The notes under the pieces are model-generated. The model had not been told where the DNA came from and did not search any database. It worked only from the letters and a program-made list of their open reading frames with translations. A DNA stretch of 34,666 bases from a virus. Lineage: Duplodnaviria > Heunggongvirae > Uroviricota > Caudoviricetes. Both the position numbers and the translations under genes were made by a program. Below, piece by piece: positions 4,783 through 33,604 of the stretch. The stretch's first letter is position 1; each line of letters begins with the position of its first letter. The DNA lies in IMG/VR virus record IMGVR_UViG_2909288124_000006; one strand, 5' to 3'.

Positions 4783-7576
4783 CATCCGGGTCGCTTTCAG
4801 CGCCGTTGACAGGCTGACCCGGCCTGCCGAAAACGCCCGCCGCCTGATGGGGCAGTTTGGTGACTCCATCCAGCGAACGCAGGGGGCGATCAAAAATCTC
4901 GAGCGTCAGGCGCGTTCATTTGAGCGCGCCCGCGACGCTGTCAGTAAAGCGGATGCGGGTATCGTGAAAGCACGACGCCAGCTTAACGCCCTTAATCAGT
5001 TACAACGCACGGGTACAGTGCTCAGCGAAAAACAACAAAAGCTGATGCAGCAGTTAAGCACCCGGCTTGAACGCCTGAATGAATCGCGCACACGGGAAAT
5101 TCAGAAAATGCGGGAGCTTGGCGGAGAGCTGAAACGCCACGGCATTTCCCTGACAGGCAGCGATAACACCATCCAGCAGGCCATCAGACGCACCGAACAG
5201 TACAACAACCAGCTTGAACGCGAACGGCAGGCGCTTGCGCGTGTAACGCGGGCGCGTGAGCGGTATTCGCGCGCGCAGGAAACAGCGGGAAAACTGAAAA
5301 CAGGTGGTGCGCTGGCAATTGGTGCGGCAGCGGCGGGCGGCTATGCTGCCGGGCGTTTTTTGCAGCCTGCGATCGGGTTCGGGAAAGAGATGTCCCGCGT
5401 TCAGGCACTGACGCGAATCGACAAAAACAGCCCGCAGTTTAAGGCGCTGCGTGAGCAGGCGTTAAAACTTGGCTCTGAAACGCAGTTCACCGCAGGCGAT
5501 GCCGCCAGTGGGCAGGCATTTCTTGCAATGGCTGGCTTCACACCACAGGCCATTCAGGCTGCGCTCCCTGGCGTACTGAGCATGGCAACGGCTGGCGGTA
5601 TGGACCTCGGTGAGACGGCGGATATTGGCTCAAATATTCTGACGCAGTTCGGTCTTTCTGCTGACCAGATGGACCGGGTCGGCGACACACTCACCGCAGC
5701 GTTTACCCGTACCAACACTGACCTTCGCGCACTGGGTGAAACCATGAAATATGCAGGTCCGGTGGCGGGTAAGCTGGGAATATCGCTGGAGCAGGCCGCA
5801 GCGATGGCGGGCGTGCTGGCGAATATGGGTATCAGGGGGAGTGATGCTGGTACGGCAATGCGTGCCAGCCTGGCTCGTCTGGCATCACCGCCAAAGGCGG
5901 CAGCAGAGGCGCTGAAAGAGCTTGGCGTGTCTGTCTCGGATGCCGGGGGCAAAATGCGCCCGATGGAGGATGTGCTGGCTGACCTTTATAAAGCTACCCG
6001 CAAATACGGGGAAGTTGACCGGGTATCGTTCTTTAAGGACATTGCCGGAGAAGAGGCTTTCACATCATTTATGGCCCTCGTTGATGCGGCAGGTGACGGC
6101 TCCTTACCCAAACTGAGAAAAGAACTTGAAGGCGCGCGCGGTGAGGCTGAACGCACGGCAAAGGTTATGGCCAACAACCTTGACGGCGATTTGAAATCAC
6201 TCAGCAGTGCATGGGAAGGGTTGCGCATCCGCATTGCAGATCTGATTGACGGTCCGCTGCGTTCTGTCACGCAGTGGCTCACGCGTGTGGTATCAAAGGT
6301 GACGGCGCTGGCGCAGGCCCATCCCGCACTGACGCGCCAGCTACTGATTGCAGGCGGTGCACTGCTGGCAATGACTGCAACGGTTGGCTCGTTGTCGCTG
6401 GCTATTGGTGTGCTTGCTGGCCCGCTGGCAAAACTGCGTCTTGGTTTTTCCCTCCTGACCGGATCAATGAATGCTGTCAGGGTTCTGCCAGCACTATGGG
6501 GAATGGTGACGGGTTCCGTTTCTTTACTGGGAGGCGCTATCGGGGCGTTGTTCAGTCCGGTTGGTCTTATCGTGGCTGCGCTTGCCGGAGCTGCCGTTCT
6601 TATCTGGAAATACTGGGATCCCATCAGGGCATTTTTTGCCGGGGTGTTCAGCGGGATTATGGAAAGGCTGACCCCGTTGCGCGAAACCTTTGAACGGTTT
6701 GGTCCTGTTTTTGACGCAATCGGAAGCGGGATCAGCCAGGTGTTTAACTGGTTTAAATCGCTGCTGTCACCGATGGAGTCCAGCAAGGAAACGCTGGATA
6801 AATGTACCAGTGCTGGCGAGATATTCGGTAACGTTCTTGGTGGCGCGCTACAGCTTGTTCTGACGCCTGCAAAAATGTTGCTGGATACGCTGGCGTGGAT
6901 ACTTGAAAAACTCGGTGTGCTTCCGGATGAAGCGGAAAGGGCGAGAAAGAAAATCGAAGACGCACAGCGTGCGGCCATTCTTCAGGACAAGGTTGCTCTG
7001 TTTCAGGGAGACATTGCGAAAATCAATCCGCCGAAGTCTGCGGAAAATGGCAATGGCACCGGAGGCGATAAACCCAAAGACAACAAACCGCTCACAGACA
7101 GCAATACCGGCACGCTACGCAGACTCAGCAAAATTGCTGATAACACAGGTAAGCTGGTTGATGAGACAAAAAAACGTATTGGCCCCGGCGATATTGTCTT
7201 TAAGAACCTGCCCCGCGCACTTGCTGTTCGTGGGGAGTGGCAGGAGCGGAAGATTGCGCAGGTCAGTAAGCCTGCCCCCGCAATTAATATCACATCCGTA
7301 GTCCCGGCTCCGCTGCCTCCGGCGCTGGTCCCTGTTGTTGCGGCCAGCTCCCGCCCGGTGGCGGAGGCCATACGATCGCCAGTGGCATCAGTTCCTGCAA
7401 CTTCCCGTAACCGGGAGCCTGCTGTCTCCGGATTTGGTGGTGAAATTCATGTTCATCTGCATAACGTTGTTACGCAGAATCCCCGCGAACTGGCGAAACT
7501 GGTCGGTGAAATGGTCAGGGCAGAAATGGAACGGCGCGCCCGTGCCGGGCGTGGCAGTTTTTACGATAAAGATTGA
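4760..7576 (+). CDS. T: Tail tape measure protein T
   Basis: About 940-aa ORF with coiled-coil N-terminus and Gly/Ala-rich hydrophobic middle typical of tape measure; start uncertain (GTG 4733, ATG 4760 or ATG 4769). Confidence 0.85.
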   Translation: MQIMKTLDIRVAFSAVDRLTRPAENARRLMGQFGDSIQRTQGAIKNLERQARSFERARDAVSKADAGIVKARRQLNALNQLQRTGTVLSEKQQKLMQQLSTRLERLNESRTREIQKMRELGGELKRHGISLTGSDNTIQQAIRRTEQYNNQLERERQALARVTRARERYSRAQETAGKLKTGGALAIGAAAAGGYAAGRFLQPAIGFGKEMSRVQALTRIDKNSPQFKALREQALKLGSETQFTAGDAASGQAFLAMAGFTPQAIQAALPGVLSMATAGGMDLGETADIGSNILTQFGLSADQMDRVGDTLTAAFTRTNTDLRALGETMKYAGPVAGKLGISLEQAAAMAGVLANMGIRGSDAGTAMRASLARLASPPKAAAEALKELGVSVSDAGGKMRPMEDVLADLYKATRKYGEVDRVSFFKDIAGEEAFTSFMALVDAAGDGSLPKLRKELEGARGEAERTAKVMANNLDGDLKSLSSAWEGLRIRIADLIDGPLRSVTQWLTRVVSKVTALAQAHPALTRQLLIAGGALLAMTATVGSLSLAIGVLAGPLAKLRLGFSLLTGSMNAVRVLPALWGMVTGSVSLLGGAIGALFSPVGLIVAALAGAAVLIWKYWDPIRAFFAGVFSGIMERLTPLRETFERFGPVFDAIGSGISQVFNWFKSLLSPMESSKETLDKCTSAGEIFGNVLGGALQLVLTPAKMLLDTLAWILEKLGVLPDEAERARKKIEDAQRAAILQDKVALFQGDIAKINPPKSAENGNGTGGDKPKDNKPLTDSNTGTLRRLSKIADNTGKLVDETKKRIGPGDIVFKNLPRALAVRGEWQERKIAQVSKPAPAINITSVVPAPLPPALVPVVAASSRPVAEAIRSPVASVPATSRNREPAVSGFGGEIHVHLHNVVTQNPRELAKLVGEMVRAEMERRARAGRGSFYDKD

Positions 7577-22035: not shown

Positions 22036-23081
22036 TGAGCAGAAAAAATAAAAAAGTGCGCATGAGTTCACGCATTGATCTCGCTGATGCGCTCAGGAAA
22101 GAATCATCGCTCAGTGCATTCACATTTGATGGTCCTTATCGCCTGACCGGGCATGACCTGCTGGACAATATGTACTGTGCTGATAACGGGCGGTGGTATG
22201 AAACCCCGGTGGACTGGTACGGTCTGGCAAGAGCCGCCCGGCAAACGTCATGGCATCAGTCTGCGCTTTACTTTAAGCGCAATGTATTGCTCGGTTGCTA
22301 CATCCCGCACCCGCTGCTTTCCCGGCAGGATTTCTCGGCGCTGGCGCTGGACTGGTTTGTGTTCGGTAACGCATTCCTTGAGCTTCGAAGCAATATGCTC
22401 GGCGAACCGCTTAAATTACGGCACGCACTGGCGAAATACATGCGACGCGGAAGCGATCTTGAATCATGGTGGTATATGCAGGATGGCAAGGATGCGTTTC
22501 AGTTTCGCCCTGGCAAAGTGTGCCACCTGATGAATCCTGACATTAACCAGGAAATCTACGGCATGCCGGAATATCTCGGCGCATTACTCTCGGCCAGCCT
22601 GTCTCATTCGGCGGACATGTTCAGAAAACTGTATTACGACAATGGATCCCACGCCGGGTGCATCATCTACATCGGTGCAGCGCAGGTAAACCGCGAAAGC
22701 ATGGACTCCCTGAAAGAAACGCTACAGGGTGCGCGTGGTGGTGGTGCGTTTAAAAACGTGCTCATTCATGCGCCCAACGGGGGCAAAGAGGGGGTGCAAA
22801 TTTTGCCGTTCCAGCAGATCACCGCAAAGGATGAGTTCATGAATGTTAAGGCGGCATCCCGTGATGATGTGCTGGCTGCGCACCGCGTTCCGCCGCAACT
22901 GATGGGGGCGATGCCGGGTGAAAAAAGTGCGTTTGGTGATGTGGAGAAGGCCGCGCGGGTTTACGCAATTAACGAGCTGATGCCCGTCATGGAGGCCATG
23001 AAGCATATCAATGACTGGCTTGGCGAAGAGGTGATCCGATTTAACCCTTACGCACTGCTGGACACCCAGCCCACATCCTGA
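22035..23081 (+). CDS. Q: Portal protein Q
   Basis: 348 aa; P2 gpQ-like. Confidence 0.92.
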   Translation: MSRKNKKVRMSSRIDLADALRKESSLSAFTFDGPYRLTGHDLLDNMYCADNGRWYETPVDWYGLARAARQTSWHQSALYFKRNVLLGCYIPHPLLSRQDFSALALDWFVFGNAFLELRSNMLGEPLKLRHALAKYMRRGSDLESWWYMQDGKDAFQFRPGKVCHLMNPDINQEIYGMPEYLGALLSASLSHSADMFRKLYYDNGSHAGCIIYIGAAQVNRESMDSLKETLQGARGGGAFKNVLIHAPNGGKEGVQILPFQQITAKDEFMNVKAASRDDVLAAHRVPPQLMGAMPGEKSAFGDVEKAARVYAINELMPVMEAMKHINDWLGEEVIRFNPYALLDTQPTS

Positions 23082-23230
23082 CGCGCTTCGCTTGTCTGCT
23101 GCTTCGCCGGGGCATAAAAAATTTATGCCCCGACTCTCCAGCTCCTGTATCAATCAGATAATTTCACGACGTCTTCCAGCTTATCGCCATCATCGACGGT
23201 CAGGCTCTTACGCAATCCCACTGCGCTGAC

Positions 23231-23255
23231 TGCATGTTCTCGCCGCCTCAGTGCG
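23231..23255. other. Candidate cohesive-end (cos) core, by partial resemblance to the P2/186 cos 19-mer as remembered
   Basis: Position just beyond Q as in P2; the complement of this stretch contains GAGGCGG...GA.AACATGC resembling GGCGAGGCGGGGAAAGCAC; weak. Confidence 0.25.
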
Positions 23256-23567
23256 ATTTTGACGGCCTTATCTGCTACCCCATCAAATCAAAAGTCCTCA
23301 CGTCTTTTTCATGCTCAGCGTGAGAAATACAGCCATTCTGTTGTGTCGCTGCGACATCGTTCAGGGGATGCTATTTACCCCCTGAAACGCGGGCTGTTCC
23401 CCCGTCACCTGCGCGCAGAAAAAGCGCGTTTTTTTGTGCACGTACGGATCCTTGACGGATCCAGCCACCACGCGGGCCGGAAGTACAAAAAGTCGTTCAA
23501 AAAAATTGTGCAAACTTGTGCACTATCGTGCAAACAAAAAAAGCGCCTTATCGGCGCTTCAAAAGTA

Positions 23568-23837
23568 TCAATTGTTGCTGTGTATTAATCGCCAACCACG
23601 AACATATGCTTCATAGGCATCTCTGTGCCTTACAGTTCCAGCCTGGCTAAACGGAATGTTAGCTAAAACTAAATCATTCTGAGCCATAGCGCGTCCTTCA
23701 AGCGCATCTTTTATGCCTAGCTCAAAAGCACAGGCAGCGCATTTGTGCCGACCTTCTTGTCCTTGATATTCAGGGAGAGACAGAAATGTTGGATTATAAC
23801 GATGAGGGTTCTTGCAAATACCTGTTTTAGCCCGCAC
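23568..23837 (-). CDS. Hypothetical 89-aa protein (no SD seen; possible gene remnant)
   Basis: ORF only; lies in the cos-proximal accessory region. Confidence 0.3.
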   Translation of the reverse strand: MRAKTGICKNPHRYNPTFLSLPEYQGQEGRHKCAACAFELGIKDALEGRAMAQNDLVLANIPFSQAGTVRHRDAYEAYVRGWRLIHSNN

Positions 23838-23977
23838 TTTATTTACCTCATAGGAAAAATATGCGTGCCTTTACAGAGGTGCGTGTAAGCAATAAAATAT
23901 ACGACGCACATTTTGATTTACTTCGGAAGGCACGCATATCAGGTTAAGTGAGTCCGACCGAGTTTTACGCCCCAATA

Positions 23978-24000
23978 GTTGCTGCTATTGGGGCGTTTTG
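23978..24000 (+). terminator. Rho-independent terminator (gccccaatag...ctattggggc followed by TTTT)
   Basis: Perfect 10-bp stem followed by T-run. Confidence 0.55.
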
Positions 24001-24201
24001 CATGGACAATGCCGCGCAATTATCTTGTCGCTCACAATGCGAACGATCTTACAAAAAGGCACATTACTGTCAAGATAATTGATCGTTTTAATCGATAGAT
24101 AATAGACAATCTATTTGTTTAACAGATCGATTATTGAAGTAAGTGTGCCAAATGGAATGATACTGTCTCTATAAACGTGAGCATTTTTCGCGCAGATGCT
24201 T

Positions 24202-24513
24202 TTACTCAGGAAATAACGCCCGGATATTCCCAGCCATCTGGCTGGTTATCTTAGCCACTGGTGCAGACTGTGCTTCAAACTTTTTTGAGCTGATTTGTGT
24301 CACAGGTAACATCTCATCATCAGCCCATGCGGCCAGTCGGTAAGCCTCTGCCGGATTCGTCTTCAGAAGTGCCAGCCCGGCCAGAAAAGCCACGCGTTGG
24401 CCGCTTTTGCGGGCTTCTGGTGTAAGGCTGTCCAGCCAGGCGCATGCTTCTCCTTCGTTCTTGACGGCAGCTGGCTTCAGATAGAAACTTATTCTTCTGG
24501 TTGGTGTCGTCAT
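24202..24513 (-). CDS. parR: ParR-like centromere-binding adaptor (type II partition)
   Basis: 103 aa directly downstream of parM; ...VAFLAGLALL... resembles R1 ParR region. Confidence 0.7.
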   Translation of the reverse strand: MTTPTRRISFYLKPAAVKNEGEACAWLDSLTPEARKSGQRVAFLAGLALLKTNPAEAYRLAAWADDEMLPVTQISSKKFEAQSAPVAKITSQMAGNIRALFPE

Positions 24514-24517
24514 TGGT

Positions 24518-25477
24518 TTACTCCTTGTTCATTGCGTACAGCCCATTAACCAGAGCAAATTGTGGCCCCCCGTCCGCGATGAAAGTCGCATTAACTCCGC
24601 AGGCTTCGCGGATAGCGGGTGCCACAATCTCCGCCCCGCCACCGACAACCATCACCCGCCCGTAACCCGAAAAAACCGCCAGCGCGCGGATCACGCGTTG
24701 TTTCAGTGTTTCTTCCTTTTCACGAATAACCGCCATCAGGCTGGCGTAATGCGCGTCATTGTGGATGTGCTGGCGCAGCCAGGCTTCATCATGGCGATGT
24801 TCGATAATGGTATTGGCGATGTGGTGACTGGTGCGCATACCGTTAGTGGCCATCACCGACAGTACGGCATCGGCCATAAGAGAAACGCCTACGTGTGGAT
24901 CGCAAAACAGCTGGCTGATACCTGCCAGTTGCCCCTGAACCTTTGCCACATCCAGCGTGGTTCCGCCCAAATCCACAATCAGCAGGGATTCAAACGGACT
25001 CATGTCAGCCAGAGCCTTAAAGCCAGCCGGAATGGATTCAGGCATAACCCGCACGTTACAGATAGTGAATGCTTCGCCGTTCTGGTACTCCACCGGGCGC
25101 ATAACGTTCGCTTTTTTGCGGTTGATGTTGGCCATGTCCGGCTGTGCGTTTGTGTCGAAATACTCGCTCAGTGGCAGGGTGACAACCACATCCACCTCCT
25201 GTGGCGTGATGCCTGATTTGACCAGTGCGTGATGAATGGCAATGACATTCACATCGCTGTACTGGTATTGCGTGTCGGTCGTCTGGACAAAGCGATCGCT
25301 GACCGGATCAAAACCGTAGCGCACGCCATCAAGCATGTAGTTCGCGGGCTGCGTGCCACTGAACGGCGCAGACCATTCCGACTTGAAACTGTTCGGGCTG
25401 ATGGCGTTGCGGCGTTCGCCGTTCTCAGTCCATGCCAGCTTGATGTTGGTGGAGCCGTCGTCGATACAAATTTTCAT
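24518..25477 (-). CDS. parM: ParM/StbA actin-like segregation ATPase
   Basis: 319 aa; IDDGSTNIKL, YSDVNVIAIHHAL, VMPESIPAG, DLGGTTLD motifs matching plasmid R1 ParM as remembered. Confidence 0.9.
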   Translation of the reverse strand: MKICIDDGSTNIKLAWTENGERRNAISPNSFKSEWSAPFSGTQPANYMLDGVRYGFDPVSDRFVQTTDTQYQYSDVNVIAIHHALVKSGITPQEVDVVVTLPLSEYFDTNAQPDMANINRKKANVMRPVEYQNGEAFTICNVRVMPESIPAGFKALADMSPFESLLIVDLGGTTLDVAKVQGQLAGISQLFCDPHVGVSLMADAVLSVMATNGMRTSHHIANTIIEHRHDEAWLRQHIHNDAHYASLMAVIREKEETLKQRVIRALAVFSGYGRVMVVGGGAEIVAPAIREACGVNATFIADGGPQFALVNGLYAMNKE

Positions 25478-25508
25478 GTCGCTTTTCCTTATGTTGATTA
25501 ATTAATCG

Positions 25509-25623
25509 TTTACGGGATTCTGAAATCCCGTTTTTGCCTGTTTTGTGTGCGCTTCATATATCGCGGCGCGTTTTTTGCTCATTTACGGGATTTGTGAATC
25601 CCGTTTCTGTCTGTTTTTTGTTT
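25509..25623. repeat. Two about 40-bp direct repeats, each containing an 8-bp-stem palindrome (acgggatt N4 aatcccgt) followed by a T-rich tract; parC-like centromere/operator candidate
   Basis: Copies at 25509-25547 and 25581-25623; first is 32 bp upstream of parM start, second lies in the last codons of gene A. Confidence 0.55.
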
Positions 25624-28376
25624 CCACTGGTCAGGCTACCCCGCAGCAGGTCTGCTTTGCGGTGGGCGCGTTCAGTGGTTTCACTGATTCTCTGTGCGTG
25701 CTCTGCGTCACGGATGGCGCGCAGCATGTCAGAAAGCACGGTAACGGGGGTTTTCATGGTGTTCTGGTCCTGCTGAAGTGTGGATGCCAGACGTGCGGCG
25801 GCTTCGGGGTCTGATGCCCCCAGTTGTTCCAGATAGCTGGCGACCGGGTTATGGCGGATCTCTGTGCTGCTTACGCCGTGATTACGGCTCAGGCGCTGCC
25901 AGAGCTGCGTGATTCGGCTGTCCGGGCGGGTATCCGGTTTGCGTACAATTTCAAATCCCTGCGGTGCAATGATGCTGCCGTCAACGTACAGGCTGCCGCC
26001 CCGTAACAGGTGCTGCATCTGCTGTTCACCGATATGCAGGCCGAGAGATTCGGCAGATTCCCGCCATTCTTTAGCGAGTAATTCGTGGTTATCAGGCAAA
26101 GGCCGCTGCTGTTTGCGGCTCTGTGTCCAGCTCTGCATTTCATCACTGCTGTTTTTTGCCTGTTTGTCACGAAGCGAACGCATCAGCGCCCGGCGTTCGT
26201 GCCGTTTCAGTGAGCGCATCCATTCGTTCACTTCAACGCCATCAGGGAGCTGCGGCCACGGTGCTGGCCGTTCTTCCGGCTGTTCTGTCCCGTTGTTGTT
26301 CGTTTCCTGTACACGGGGACAGTTATTGCCACGAGTCCAAGGGGCGGCAGGGCCGCCCTGAAGGTCAAAACCATTTTCGCGGGCGCTGTCTTCCGCTTCC
26401 GGTTTACGTCTTACCAGCTTCCAGTTATCCGGATGTGTGCACACACGGGAAGACTCCCCGATGAGTGGTGACCAGATCCCGTAAATCTGTACGCTCTGTT
26501 CGCCGTAATCGTTCAGCTCATCTGCGAGGTCGTAGGCGGTGCGAATCAGGTAGTCTTTGCGTGGAACAAGTACGCCGCCCTGTTTTTCAATGTAGGAGGC
26601 AAAACACCCGGCATCAGCGGCAGCGAGCACTGCATCCATTGCGTCATCCTTCAGTCGTTGCGGGCCTTCCGGGTTGCGTGCCATCTGGCTGGCAAGGCGG
26701 CGCAGTTCACGCCACACCTGACGGGAGGGGATGCCAAAGAACTGGAACTGGCGGACCCGGTGAAGGCGCGCCCAGCCGATGGCGCGCTCCACGCTCTCGG
26801 CCATTGATTTTCCGGTTTCGTGGTCAACGCGTGGCTTGCCCGTTTTCGGGTCGATACCATCCACGGCGCGGCTGTCCAGGTTCTTTCCGATGTAGGTGGC
26901 GATGTAGCTGGTTGGCGTGCCTTTTGAGCCGTCGACGTACTCCGCTTTAAAACGCGGAGTTATGTCATCGCCCAGCTCGTGGCGGTCTTCCTGAATGGCA
27001 ATATCGCAGACGTGGGACACGATGGTTTCAATCTCGTCCGGATGTGCAAAGACCATCATATGCCAGTGCACAGTGCCGTCATGGTGAGGCTCCACCGTGC
27101 GGATGCCATACCAGCGAAGACCGTCGCGGTTCAGTTTTTTGCGGACCGCCGCAAAAAACGTGTTAACCAGGTAATCGCTGGAGTCGCGCATGGTGGCCCC
27201 GTTCCATTTGGGATTCGGATGACCGTTCTCTGTTGTGGCGTGGTATTTTGACGGGCAGGTGACAGTCAGAAACACCGCTTTGTCGCCACGGGCTTCGGCC
27301 AGAAGTTCCAGCCCCTTCATGGTGGCCATCATTTCTGCCTTACGGTGAACCGGGTTACTTACTCCCGCGTAATACACTGTCTCGAGATCAATCGTGAACC
27401 CGTCTTCGTTTTCCAGCATGAAACTTTTCAGGAAATCGCGTGTTTTCTCGCGCTGTGCGCGAAACTCGCTTAATGCGTCCTGGCTCAGATAGGGCGATGT
27501 TTTTCTGGAAACCAGACAGGCGGCGCGGAGTTGTTCTTCTCTCCACTCGCAACGTAACAGCCACAGTTTGCGTTTCCACCATTCCGCACAGGTCAGGCGA
27601 AGGATTGCGCCCGGCAGCAGCTCCGTGTCCGGTTCGTTCCTCCGGTCTTTGTCTGTTGTCAGTGCGTCATAATGTGGAGGCATGATGTGCAGGTGTAACG
27701 CCATGCGGGCCAGCATCTGATACGCCTTCAGCGTTACATCCATGGTCAGTTCGCCATCGGTCGCGCCAAAGCCATCGCAGAGTTTTTCGAAGGTGCTGCT
27801 GAACATCGCCGCCGTCATGGTGGCCAGCGTCTGTATCTGGTGTTTGTTGAGCTGCGGCAGGTAAAGCAAATCGTCCAGGCGTTCGCGTCCGGCAAGGGAG
27901 CGATACCCCGGTGTCAGCCAGCGTCCGTCAGTGCGATCCAGACGTTCGAATATTTTGCGCAGGGTTCCGCGTGCATAGCGTTCCGCCTGCCAGCTCTTTT
28001 TGCATTTCCGGTGATCGGCTTCCTGTTTTTTGCGCAGGAAGGAGAGGTGGCGAATAAGCGGATCGCGCAGATAGGACGGCAGCAGGCGCAGCGAGGCCAT
28101 GGCTTCATCCACCGCGCCGCGTGCCTGTTTTCTGGCGTCTCCTGCCAGTGTGATGGTTTTGTCCTGTTTTTCCTGTGCGTCCAGGCTTTTATTAATCAGG
28201 TTGCCCAGCGGCGTGGCGGAGAACGCCGCATCAGCCATTTCTTGGCGTCGCTCGTTCTCTGCCCGGTAGGCATCCAGCCAGGAGGAAAGCGCGGATTCAG
28301 GAGCGGGGATCCCCGTTCCTTCACGCCCCACTGCGTGGCGCGGTTGTTGCCAGTCCCTGATGTACTCTGCCGTCAT
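25554..28376 (-). CDS. A: Replication initiation endonuclease A (rolling-circle, P2 gpA family)
   Basis: 940 aa; VEPHHDGTVHWHMMVF and YIATYIGKN motifs typical of gpA. Confidence 0.9.
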   Translation of the reverse strand: MTAEYIRDWQQPRHAVGREGTGIPAPESALSSWLDAYRAENERRQEMADAAFSATPLGNLINKSLDAQEKQDKTITLAGDARKQARGAVDEAMASLRLLPSYLRDPLIRHLSFLRKKQEADHRKCKKSWQAERYARGTLRKIFERLDRTDGRWLTPGYRSLAGRERLDDLLYLPQLNKHQIQTLATMTAAMFSSTFEKLCDGFGATDGELTMDVTLKAYQMLARMALHLHIMPPHYDALTTDKDRRNEPDTELLPGAILRLTCAEWWKRKLWLLRCEWREEQLRAACLVSRKTSPYLSQDALSEFRAQREKTRDFLKSFMLENEDGFTIDLETVYYAGVSNPVHRKAEMMATMKGLELLAEARGDKAVFLTVTCPSKYHATTENGHPNPKWNGATMRDSSDYLVNTFFAAVRKKLNRDGLRWYGIRTVEPHHDGTVHWHMMVFAHPDEIETIVSHVCDIAIQEDRHELGDDITPRFKAEYVDGSKGTPTSYIATYIGKNLDSRAVDGIDPKTGKPRVDHETGKSMAESVERAIGWARLHRVRQFQFFGIPSRQVWRELRRLASQMARNPEGPQRLKDDAMDAVLAAADAGCFASYIEKQGGVLVPRKDYLIRTAYDLADELNDYGEQSVQIYGIWSPLIGESSRVCTHPDNWKLVRRKPEAEDSARENGFDLQGGPAAPWTRGNNCPRVQETNNNGTEQPEERPAPWPQLPDGVEVNEWMRSLKRHERRALMRSLRDKQAKNSSDEMQSWTQSRKQQRPLPDNHELLAKEWRESAESLGLHIGEQQMQHLLRGGSLYVDGSIIAPQGFEIVRKPDTRPDSRITQLWQRLSRNHGVSSTEIRHNPVASYLEQLGASDPEAAARLASTLQQDQNTMKTPVTVLSDMLRAIRDAEHAQRISETTERAHRKADLLRGSLTSGNKKQTETGFTNPVNEQKTRRDI

Positions 28377-32770: not shown

Positions 32771-33022
32771 TTATGCTGCTTTACCGCTGATATTTCCGTT
32801 TCGTCTGCCACTTGTTGGCTTAAACAAAAACAGACGGTTTTCCCAGTCGTGCCATTCCTGAGGTGCGTTTTCGATGAGGCGATCGCATGCTTCATCCCAC
32901 GCTTTTCTGTTGATGTAGAGTTCAGCGTTTCCGCCTGGTTTGAGAGGGTCCGCCATATACACCGCAGGTAGCTTTCCTGCTTTGGCCATGCTTACGATGG
33001 CGTCAACGGTCTTTCCGATATA
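32771..33022 (-). CDS. cox: Cox-like excisionase/early repressor (start uncertain; frame is open up to 33235)
   Basis: IGKTVDAIVSMAKAGKLPAVYMADP resembles P2 Cox IGKSTGAVRRMIDKGKLPVIDMTDP; ATG 33022 has SD AAGGA; divergent from C. Confidence 0.6.
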   Translation of the reverse strand, partial: YIGKTVDAIVSMAKAGKLPAVYMADPLKPGGNAELYINRKAWDEACDRLIENAPQEWHDWENRLFLFKPTSGRRNGNISGKAA

Positions 33023-33268
33023 CATCGCAAATCCTTCTTTTGACAGGAGATGCGAGGGATTTTCTGAAAGTCGAATCTCTTCACGTTCACGTGCTTTGCG
33101 TCCTGTTTTTTGATGCTCCCCTTCTGGCATTTCTGGCAGGTGATCGCATCGTGTTCCGCAAAGTGACTCAGGCGCGTTTTGAGTGCTTTCTTGCATCTGA
33201 TATCCTCCGCCATTGGTGCTTTTTCTAATTGGCACTAGTTGGAACCACTTAGAACATTCTTTTGCTGT

Positions 33269-33295
33269 TCATATGTGGTGTTAATCTACACATAT
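33269..33295. promoter_or_regulatory. Inverted repeat catatgtg N11 cacatatg in the cox/C intergenic switch region; operator candidate
   Basis: 8-bp perfect arms 15 bp upstream of C start; overlaps C ribosome-binding region. Confidence 0.4.
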
Positions 33296-33310
33296 GTAGG
33301 AGTTTGTCAA

Positions 33311-33604
33311 ATGGACATTCCTCAAAAAATTCGCGTCATGCGTAAATCTGAAGATCTGACTCAGCGGGAATTCGCTGATATGATTGGAATTTCTTATTCT
33401 GCTCTGACCAGTTATGAGTATGGTCGTAACCTTCCTGGTCTTGAGATCACTATCAAGCTTTTCAAGCACCCGAGATTTTCTAAATACCGCGACTGGTTTT
33501 TGTTTGATGAAGTTGCACCCAAGGCCGGGCAGGTTGTACCGGCTCTCGCACACATTGGGCAAGACGAAGCGGAATCATCCCGCTCCGGCAAGAAAACTGG
33601 TTAA
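33311..33604 (+). CDS. C: Immunity repressor C
   Basis: VMRKSEDLTQREFADMIGISYSALTSYEYGRN... and C-terminal PALAHIGQDE...SGKKTG resemble P2 C; start ATG 33311 with SD AGGAG. Confidence 0.85.
   Translation: MDIPQKIRVMRKSEDLTQREFADMIGISYSALTSYEYGRNLPGLEITIKLFKHPRFSKYRDWFLFDEVAPKAGQVVPALAHIGQDEAESSRSGKKTG

Follow-up and report, generated by a model that had tools for sequence, protein, structure and literature searches.

The 34,666-nucleotide stretch of virus DNA analysed here (IMG/VR record IMGVR_UViG_2909288124_000006; hereafter the window) is a P88-like prophage (Xuanwuvirus, Peduoviridae; P2 family) of Escherichia coli in which the replication gene A is directly followed by parM and parR, the two genes of a plasmid-type segregation system. 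On balance, and with some reserve, we regard parMR as a functional type II (ParMRC-like) module of the P88-like lineage which would act on transient circular phage genomes and not in a stable plasmid prophage. This reading is carried by the identity of both genes, their intact motifs, their conservation under purifying selection, a conserved pair of sites in front of parM and the chromosomal residence of these prophages. The original prediction, which had been made from the sequence letters, was right in its identification of the module, and the phage-plasmid lifestyle that it inferred as possible is not supported; P88-like and related P2-family prophages carry the module as a regular feature. 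The P88-like lineage, whose phages integrate and replicate by rolling circle, is present in about 24% of the complete E. coli genomes, O157:H7 and ST131 included, and in it a whole plasmid segregation motor has been retained under strong purifying selection.

ParM and ParR belong to the plasmid partition families

The product of parM, of 319 amino acids (aa), matched the two Pfam domains of its family, StbA_N with an E-value of 2.6e-81 (271.7 bits, cut-off 24.6) and the ParM C-terminal domain with an E-value of 4.6e-68 (228.7 bits, cut-off 27.4). In addition, structures of the ParM of plasmid R1 (1mwk and others) matched its residues 2-316 with an E-value of 1e-91, and the protein is 47% identical to the R1-type StbA. 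In the alignment with R1 ParM, the phosphate 1, connect, phosphate 2 and adenosine motifs were all intact: the stretches IDDGSTNIKL, VMPESIPAG and DLGGTTLD are identical in both proteins, GGGAE(I/L) is conserved, and E148 and D170 of R1 ParM align with E147 and D169 of the window protein, as counted from the alignment. The family is PHROG 691, named partition protein. Both the Pfam profiles and the R1 structures therefore bore out the proposal, made in the original prediction, of a 319-aa protein with ParM/StbA motifs; it was found neither to belong to a non-partition actin-like family nor to have degenerate ATPase motifs.

The start of parR is located 4 nucleotides (nt) after the stop codon of parM, and its AAGGAG ribosome-binding site lies within the end of this gene. 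The 103-aa ParR-like product that had been noticed there was assigned by Pfam to Plasmid_stab_B (Table 1) and is a member of PHROG 2515, also named partition protein. Its layout consists of a predicted N-terminal DNA-binding strand with predicted helices, a variable linker and a C-terminal NIRALFPE tail. Among 27 ParR alleles, which are 43–98% identical, M1, the stretch R6-P14 (RRISFYLKP), several helix positions, N96, I97, F101 and P102 are invariant; residues 64-95 are hypervariable and the C-terminal tail of NIxxLFPE type (N-I-x-x-x-F-P) is kept. Both ends align with the plasmid ParRs of R1 (StbB), IncI1, IncK and IncL/M, and these proteins (117–147 aa) exceed the window ParR in the linker only. 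Conserved ends joined by a free linker are the pattern expected of a working adaptor having a DNA-binding head and a ParM-binding tail, and the NIxxLFPE tail would be expected to be the ParM-binding element. AlphaFold modelled the ParR monomer with low confidence only (pLDDT 58), giving helices at residues 20-61 and 86-100 and no N-terminal strand. A sequence search of the PDB with ParR gave no match.

Within the E. coli lineage, clusters of full-length ParM are 91–98% identical, versus 43–98% for the ParR alleles. The latter differ by up to 57%, mostly at residues 64-95, and breakpoints of the DNA of the cargo hotspot were located inside the 3′ part of parR (at ~24368 and ~24459). The recombination boundary of the hotspot seems to run into the ParR linker.

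Two conserved sites upstream of parM form a candidate centromere

Two 43-nt direct repeats, 81% identical and with a spacing of 73 nt, precede parM. The repeats which the original prediction had described at this place are real, and their limits are given in Table 1. Each one holds a palindrome with 8-bp arms, ACGGGATT-N4-AATCCCGT, and this pattern had two matches in the window versus 0.14 expected, two being reached in 1 of 100 shuffles. Likewise, AAWCCCRNAAAY had only two exact matches in the window, both at the repeat sites. The half-site AATCCCGTAAAC resembles the parC iteron of R1, AAACCCAAAAAC, and in Hafnia the R1 iteron itself is present without change. The distal candidate ParR site is contained in the last ~22 codons of A, so that the replication gene and the putative partition cis element physically overlap.

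A GGG-N10-CCC pair was identified at −52/−125 from the parM ATG in the loci of E. coli, E. albertii and Salmonella, at −55/−128 in Hafnia and at −59/−131 in Plesiomonas, its spacing being 72–73 bp in all loci. The position of the pair is thus kept although ParM differs by about 40% between genera. In Hafnia and Plesiomonas the interval from GGG to CCC is not self-complementary, which favours a protein-binding site over a hairpin. Furthermore, the equivalent sites of Hafnia lie inside an extra open reading frame (ORF) separating A from parM and, as they are in a different ORF, the sites travel with parM and not with A. We regard the two repeats as a candidate minimal parC/operator, made up of two palindromic sites only and having no iteron array like those of R1 (~10 repeats) or of IncI1 and IncL/M plasmids.

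In Serratia (locus positions 5887-5940) and Enterobacter (locus positions 5883-5950) the GGG-N10-CCC pair is replaced by a 14–20-nt inverted repeat, GAAATAGAAAAATG / CATTTTTCTATTTC, with a spacer of 26–28 nt. The N-terminal strand of the Serratia ParR is also different (NRKISFYLKP). These differences suggest that adaptor and site co-vary in the Serratia/Enterobacter lineage.

Other functions of the repeats were considered and rejected. By homology they are not the replication origin: the nick site of P2 is within A, at codon 620 of 761, and the equivalent point of the window is at ~26.3 kb, about 0.7 kb from the repeats; the location of the Hafnia sites in another ORF also counters this possibility. 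An RNA or DNA hairpin was discarded as well, the stem not being conserved in Hafnia and Plesiomonas, where only GGG-N10-CCC is kept. The changes between alleles lead to wobble pairing in the sense strand for one of the sites but in the antisense strand for the second, and a hairpin receives no consistent support from them. An Rfam scan of positions 22900-26000 gave nothing meaningful.

Expression of the module

A simple consensus scan identified neither a sigma-70-like promoter nor a sense-strand terminator between A and parM. In all five lineages (that of the window, Hafnia, Plesiomonas, Serratia and Enterobacter) parMR is co-oriented behind A, either directly or after one or two small genes. 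This arrangement points to an expression of parMR by read-through from the early operon, which would take place together with that of gpA after infection or induction, the module being presumably silent in the lysogen. Such silence fits with the fact that up to three copies of parM per genome are tolerated.

The prophages carrying parMR reside in the chromosome

Of 5426 complete E. coli genomes, 1302 contained parM, which was near full length in 1278 of these, and individual genomes had up to three copies. The places where it was found in these genomes were chromosomal in 1440 cases and on plasmid records in 2, which argues against a stable phage-plasmid lifestyle. PLSDB contained seven matches. 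The only phage-sized circle among them, pZ1323PEC0009-2 (34.5 kb), is a whole P88-like phage that keeps its integrase, and the phage is 100% identical to a prophage integrated in another strain of the same study. Two further records were rejected as episomes. The 26.7-kb PLSDB record of Shigella boydii is a linear, degraded and IS1-ridden prophage fragment, and Salmonella pS2122_1 is a hybrid record in which chromosomal genes (pheA, tyrA, aroF, rplS and ffh) are found beside the prophage, being either a plasmid-chromosome fusion or a misassembly. The prophage of pS2122_1 (NZ_CP110658, 99429-140873; typed IncHI2A) is a P2-like one that carries sopE and the same parMR (96% nucleotide identity), with IS26 adjoining.

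Other data agreed with chromosomal residence. The close relative phiSM integrates at a chromosomal attB in K-12 (PMC6456863), and the sole replication initiator found in the window was the rolling-circle type gpA, there being no plasmid-type replication gene among the ORFs examined. A stable phage-plasmid lifestyle is not supported, and the exceptions correspond to an occasional excised circle captured by the assembler. The chromosomal count, the integrated twin of the 34.5-kb circle and the attB of phiSM speak against the earlier suggestion that the phage may persist as an extrachromosomal replicon.

Conservation and age of the module

The A type of the window was present at a coverage of at least 80% in 1354 genomes versus the 1278 with a near-full-length parM, giving a retention of about 94%; parMR is nearly fixed in the P88-like lineage. 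Pairwise ratios of non-synonymous to synonymous substitutions (dN/dS) of parM ranged from 0.01 to 0.2, and eight of eight alleles, from E. coli, E. albertii, Salmonella and a Vagococcus-labelled contig, were intact. The latter contig (NZ_JBQPOM010000071, labelled Vagococcus sp. WN89Y) has a P88-like parM 97% identical to that of E. coli and is most likely an enterobacterial contaminant or a mislabelled assembly.

Diverged relatives were obtained from a protein search and contig look-ups, as a single-protein scan of GTDB genomes gave near-identical copies only. The gpA-parM-parR-cargo-portal synteny was observed in P2-like prophages of Hafnia, Plesiomonas, Serratia and Enterobacter, whose ParMs are 61, 62, 57, and 53% identical to that of the window, respectively. 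The five context-verified P2-like ParMs clustered together in a neighbour-joining tree without bootstrap. By tblastn, the best plasmid ParMs (IncI1 and IncL/M) were ~52% identical, and a search over 50,697 phage records found ParM in 14 P88-like records and in 2 records of phage D6, a P1-like phage whose ParM shows 47% identity to that of the window. An integrative and conjugative element (ICE) of Dickeya has a ParM with 48% identity. A best plasmid identity of ~52%, together with synteny in four other genera, leaves room for plasmid capture only in the distant past. Hence the capture from a plasmid put forward in the original prediction is conceivable as an ancient event and does not hold as a recent one. 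A single ancient acquisition of the module by P2-like phages is likely and, to judge from these comparisons, parMR is neither a recent plasmid capture nor a relic.

Two particular records deserve mention. In E. coli O157:H7 strain 2149 (NZ_CP017436, 2153672-2161863) a P88-like remnant has IS1203 directly 3′ of parR and a frameshifted tape measure gene, and its parM and parR are intact. Escherichia phage 500465-2, considered as a close relative lacking parMR, was rejected as uninformative because it is a mis-delimited prophage that includes the host genes fabB, mnmC, and flk and misses the whole early region.

Comparison with known systems

The module is already known by annotation. Phage P88 (NC_026014) annotates a "plasmid segregation protein ParM" and a "partition protein" at this position, Citrobacter phage phiSM and PHROGs 691 and 2515 include them, and RefSeq names the pair (WP_000686519 and WP_000211275), which is so named in every genome sampled. 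The genes of P88, phiSM, and RefSeq are essentially the same as those of the window, with ParM 97–98% identical and in the same place after the replication endonuclease. The window has its own ParR linker allele and a different downstream cargo gene, and otherwise there is no material difference.

The closest plasmid model is the ParMRC system of R1, with which the window module shares the Pfam families of both proteins, the order of cis site (a candidate one in the window), parM and parR, the degree of ParM identity mentioned above, and a ParR with a predicted N-terminal strand and helices. The C-terminal motif of ParR reads NIRALFPE in the window, NAMKLIN in R1 and N.xxLFPDD in IncI1 and IncL/M. 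However, the window module is carried by an integrating phage and not by a plasmid, and its ParR is the shortest of those compared (103 aa versus 117 in R1 StbB and 138–147 in IncI1, IncK, and IncL/M). In the cis region, the window has two palindromes 73 bp apart, one of them in the end of A, whereas R1 has two blocks of direct 11-bp iterons around a promoter. Finally, no promoter of its own was detected in the window module, whereas the R1-type locus shows, as read by eye, hexamers of TTGACT and TTGACA type between the iteron blocks.

A tailed temperate phage with a StbA-type ParM/ParR pair is already found in D6. Its record is 91 kb long and P1-like (the annotation cites P1 genes), with a long region before parM, in contrast to the integrase-bearing P88-like phages, which occur in integrated form. 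Phages of the P1-like type are kept in the cell as plasmids.

Two systems of integrated elements are also comparable. In the SXT/R391 ICEs, expression of the SrpMRC system is restricted to conditions in which the excision functions are expressed, and the system stabilises the excised form, which replicates by rolling circle (Carraro et al., 2015, PMC4489591). It is, as the window module would be, a ParMRC-type system on a normally integrated element alongside rolling-circle replication, but the ICE is not a tailed phage, and the function of SrpMRC was shown by experiment, that of the window module being deduced. The relationship of SrpM and SrpR to R1 ParMR is described as distant, and no ParR domain can be recognised in SrpR (PMC4489591), unlike the proteins of the window, which are both clear members of the StbA and StbB families. 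In prophage CGP3 of Corynebacterium glutamicum, AlpAC attaches the circular phage DNA to filaments of an actin-like protein (Donovan et al., 2015, PMC4446434). The AlpC/AlpA/alpS set consists, as the window module is proposed to do, of a prophage actin-like protein and a co-transcribed adaptor which binds a site upstream of its own operon, and it is induced early. Host and type of phage are different, the phenotype shown is replication efficiency and not partition, and the likeness is one of description.

Proposed role and alternative explanations

We propose that parM and parR are the distal end of the early operon (cox ... A-parM-parR), so that they would be made with gpA after infection or induction and remain silent in the repressed lysogen. 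The two GGG-N10-CCC palindromes, at 52 and 125 bp from parM on its upstream side, would serve as a minimal parC to which ParR dimers bind, and the invariant NIxxLFPE tail of ParR may capture the growing ends of ATP-ParM filaments. These filaments would then push sister phage circles apart. The benefit would be that monomeric circles are separated and reach both cell halves or both daughters, with less loss before integration or after abortive excision, as for SrpMRC. We infer the binding of ParR to the two sites, the co-transcription with A, the timing of expression and the fitness benefit.

Several points weigh against this proposal. The literature searched yielded genome surveys and contained no functional study of this module, nor of ParM in P2-like, P88 or Xuanwuvirus phages; the P88 genome paper does not mention partition and the phiSM paper lists parM simply as cargo (PMC6456863). 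Two palindromic sites contrast with the ~10 iterons of an R1-type parC, and they may be a mere operator or be too small for a ParR scaffold. On the opposite strand, both palindromes resemble intrinsic terminators (a hairpin plus a T-run), and Serratia likewise has two antisense terminator-like hairpins; a role of the repeats as a transcriptional insulator against antisense transcription is conceivable, though not favoured. The O157:H7 remnant has an intact parM and yet its proximal site is mutated, CCC being changed to CCT (GCGGGATTTAAAAATCCTGT). In addition, the ParMs of Serratia and Enterobacter are about as similar to those of IncI1 and IncL/M plasmids (58–61%) as to the clade of the window (53–62%), so that a single ancient acquisition is no more than likely. 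Finally, the absence of a promoter comes from a crude consensus scan, and a weak or non-consensus promoter would allow expression in the lysogen.

The main rival to partition is a lytic role like that of AlpAC, in which ParMR would position or spread the replicating circles for rolling-circle replication, and possibly for packaging, with no part in inheritance. In P2-type phages, monomeric circles are the substrate of packaging. The lytic role agrees with the placement of the module and its presumed co-expression with gpA, and also with the findings on CGP3, whose AlpC and AlpA are induced early, bind a site that precedes their operon and are necessary for the phage DNA to be replicated efficiently (PMC4446434). 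The sequence does not separate the lytic from the partition explanation and both may hold together. However, P2, 186 and most Peduoviridae had no ParM in the tblastn search of the phage records, so the module is not required for P2-type replication or packaging, and we consider an exclusively lytic role possible but rather unlikely.

The other explanations are disfavoured by distribution, selection, and conservation. A non-partition accessory role played from the prophage, either incompatibility or interference with ParMRC plasmids or related phages, or defence, might be deduced from the proximity of the module to a variable cargo slot at the P2 tin-old hotspot, from the resemblance of the candidate ParR half-sites to the parC iterons of R1-type plasmids and from the unusual ParR diversity in one lineage compared with that of ParM. 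But the module is the conserved flank of the hotspot and not its variable part, the diversity of ParR is in the linker and not in the invariant DNA-binding strand, PADLOC matched none of the proteins, and no promoter for expression in the lysogen was found. Moreover, a complete ParM, an intact ParR tail and cis sites are the needs of a working motor and not those of a decoy, which makes this role very unlikely. Hardly any more credit, and in fact slightly less, was given to a selfish or decaying relic, that is, a module acquired once from a plasmid, which is carried along with the replication module and is of no use to the phage. P2-family phages without parMR are fully viable, and the O157:H7 remnant retains the module though the rest of the prophage is degraded; against this, parM is under strong purifying selection and is retained with this A type as described above, the functional ends of ParR are invariant despite the turnover of the linker, and synteny and cis sites are conserved across genera at ~60% ParM identity. 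The least probable explanation, to which we give very little credence, is a regular autonomous low-copy plasmid prophage using parMR for stable plasmid inheritance. Its favourable points are the 34.5-kb circular "plasmid" record that is a complete P88-like phage and the use of this type of module by low-copy plasmids and by the P1-like D6. Nevertheless, the chromosomal places vastly outnumber the two plasmid ones, integrase, Cox, and C are intact, gpA is the only replicon, the circle is identical to an integrated copy found elsewhere, the other examined records are a hybrid and a degraded fragment, and phiSM integrates in K-12.

The proposal can be stated in a more general form, which we hold more tentatively and consider only about as credible as its negation, or slightly less: P88-like and related P2-family phages of Enterobacterales may use a streamlined ParMRC, in which the centromere consists of two palindromes and lies partly in A, ParR is short and a dedicated promoter is missing. 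It would segregate the monomeric genomes produced by rolling-circle replication, in the interval that begins with infection or excision and ends with integration or lysis. If confirmed, this would be, within the literature searched, the first demonstration that a type II partition system serves a tailed phage that integrates, and it would explain why about a quarter of the E. coli genomes keep a "plasmid" partition motor in the chromosome under purifying selection. Should the transient circle be partitioned by this motor, the principle that ICEs behave like plasmids when excised would be extended to tailed prophages, with a bearing on lysogenisation efficiency, prophage curing and the dynamics of spontaneous induction in important pathogens. 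In addition, the conserved pair of sites would offer a small natural parC with which to ask what minimum of ParR sites is enough for the capture of ParM filaments.

The prophage and the surroundings of the module

P88 matched 87% of window positions 1-24000 at 96.2% identity and has the same gene order, and the identity with P88 in the A-parM-parR segment was 95–98%. Integrase, Cox, and the C repressor are all intact. Cox is followed by a run of minus-strand early genes that ends in A, parM, and parR (Table 1).

Table 1. Coordinates of parMR, its candidate sites and other features of the window.
Feature	Position	Strand	Evidence or remark
Variable cargo slot	23568-24201	-	Context, not part of the parMR module
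89-aa gene	23568-23837	-	PHROG 3941, no assigned function
parR, 103-aa StbB/ParR-type adaptor	24202-24513	-	Pfam Plasmid_stab_B, E 9.8e-24, 83.4 bits (cut-off 25)
parM, 319-aa actin-like segregation ATPase (StbA/ParM family)	24518-25477	-	Pfam, PDB and PHROG matches
Proximal 43-nt repeat, candidate ParR-binding site 2	25506-25548		In the A-parM gap; palindrome ACGGGATTCTGAAATCCCGT (25512-25531)
Gene A, 940-aa P2-type gpA rolling-circle replication endonuclease	25554-28376	-	Pfam Phage_GPA, E 2e-130
Distal 43-nt repeat, candidate ParR-binding site 1	25579-25621		In the last ~22 codons of A; palindrome ACGGGATTTGTGAATCCCGT (25585-25604)
SPFH/Band-7 domain protein, 276 aa	29419-30249	-	Pfam E 5.7e-31; PHROG 200 "lipoprotein"
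Cox	32771-33235		
Helix-turn-helix repressor (C)	33239-33604	+	
Tyrosine integrase	33635-34666		

Gene A is directly upstream of parM and co-oriented with it, the gap between them being 76 bp. The Pfam match of gpA to Phage_GPA and the presence of the integrase agree with the location of the module, as originally described, directly downstream of A in an integrase-bearing P2-like prophage. The gpA of the window is 31% identical to P2 A over residues 77-744 and is longer (940 aa versus 761 aa in P2); its C-terminal ~195 aa (25554-26140), past residue 744, have no P2 counterpart in the BLASTP alignment. The P2 record shows orf91, tin, and old from A to cos, before cosR, as the original prediction had stated for tin and old, and parMR occupies the position downstream of A where P2 has tin/old. 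The P2 cos 19-mer was not found in the window when up to 4 mismatches were allowed; judging by synteny alone, cos would be placed between the portal gene and the cargo slot.

The P88, O157, and EcPF14 prophages cease to match the window where parR ends or already within the 3′ part of this gene, which indicates that parMR is a conserved flank and that the variable slot extends between parR and the portal side. The cargo gene of the window has its own good promoter-like site at 24073..24046 (TTGACA-16-TAAGAT), framed by the two arms (24017-24027 and 24071-24081) of a perfect inverted repeat of 11 bp. A strong terminator of this gene is located at 23560..23540. The 89-aa gene is probably a moron expressed in the lysogen. 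PADLOC gave no defence-system match for ParM, ParR, gpA or the 89-aa cargo protein.

The window starts at the ATG of an 80-aa ORF (PHROG 12383), ends exactly at the stop codon of the integrase and contains neither tRNA genes nor host flanks. It looks like a prophage delimited by software, so that neither the att sites nor the integration locus can be read from it. The SPFH/Band-7 gene lies midway in the early operon, with the small early genes on one side and the gene of the derepression protein on the other, and is an unusual passenger for the early region of a P2-type phage.

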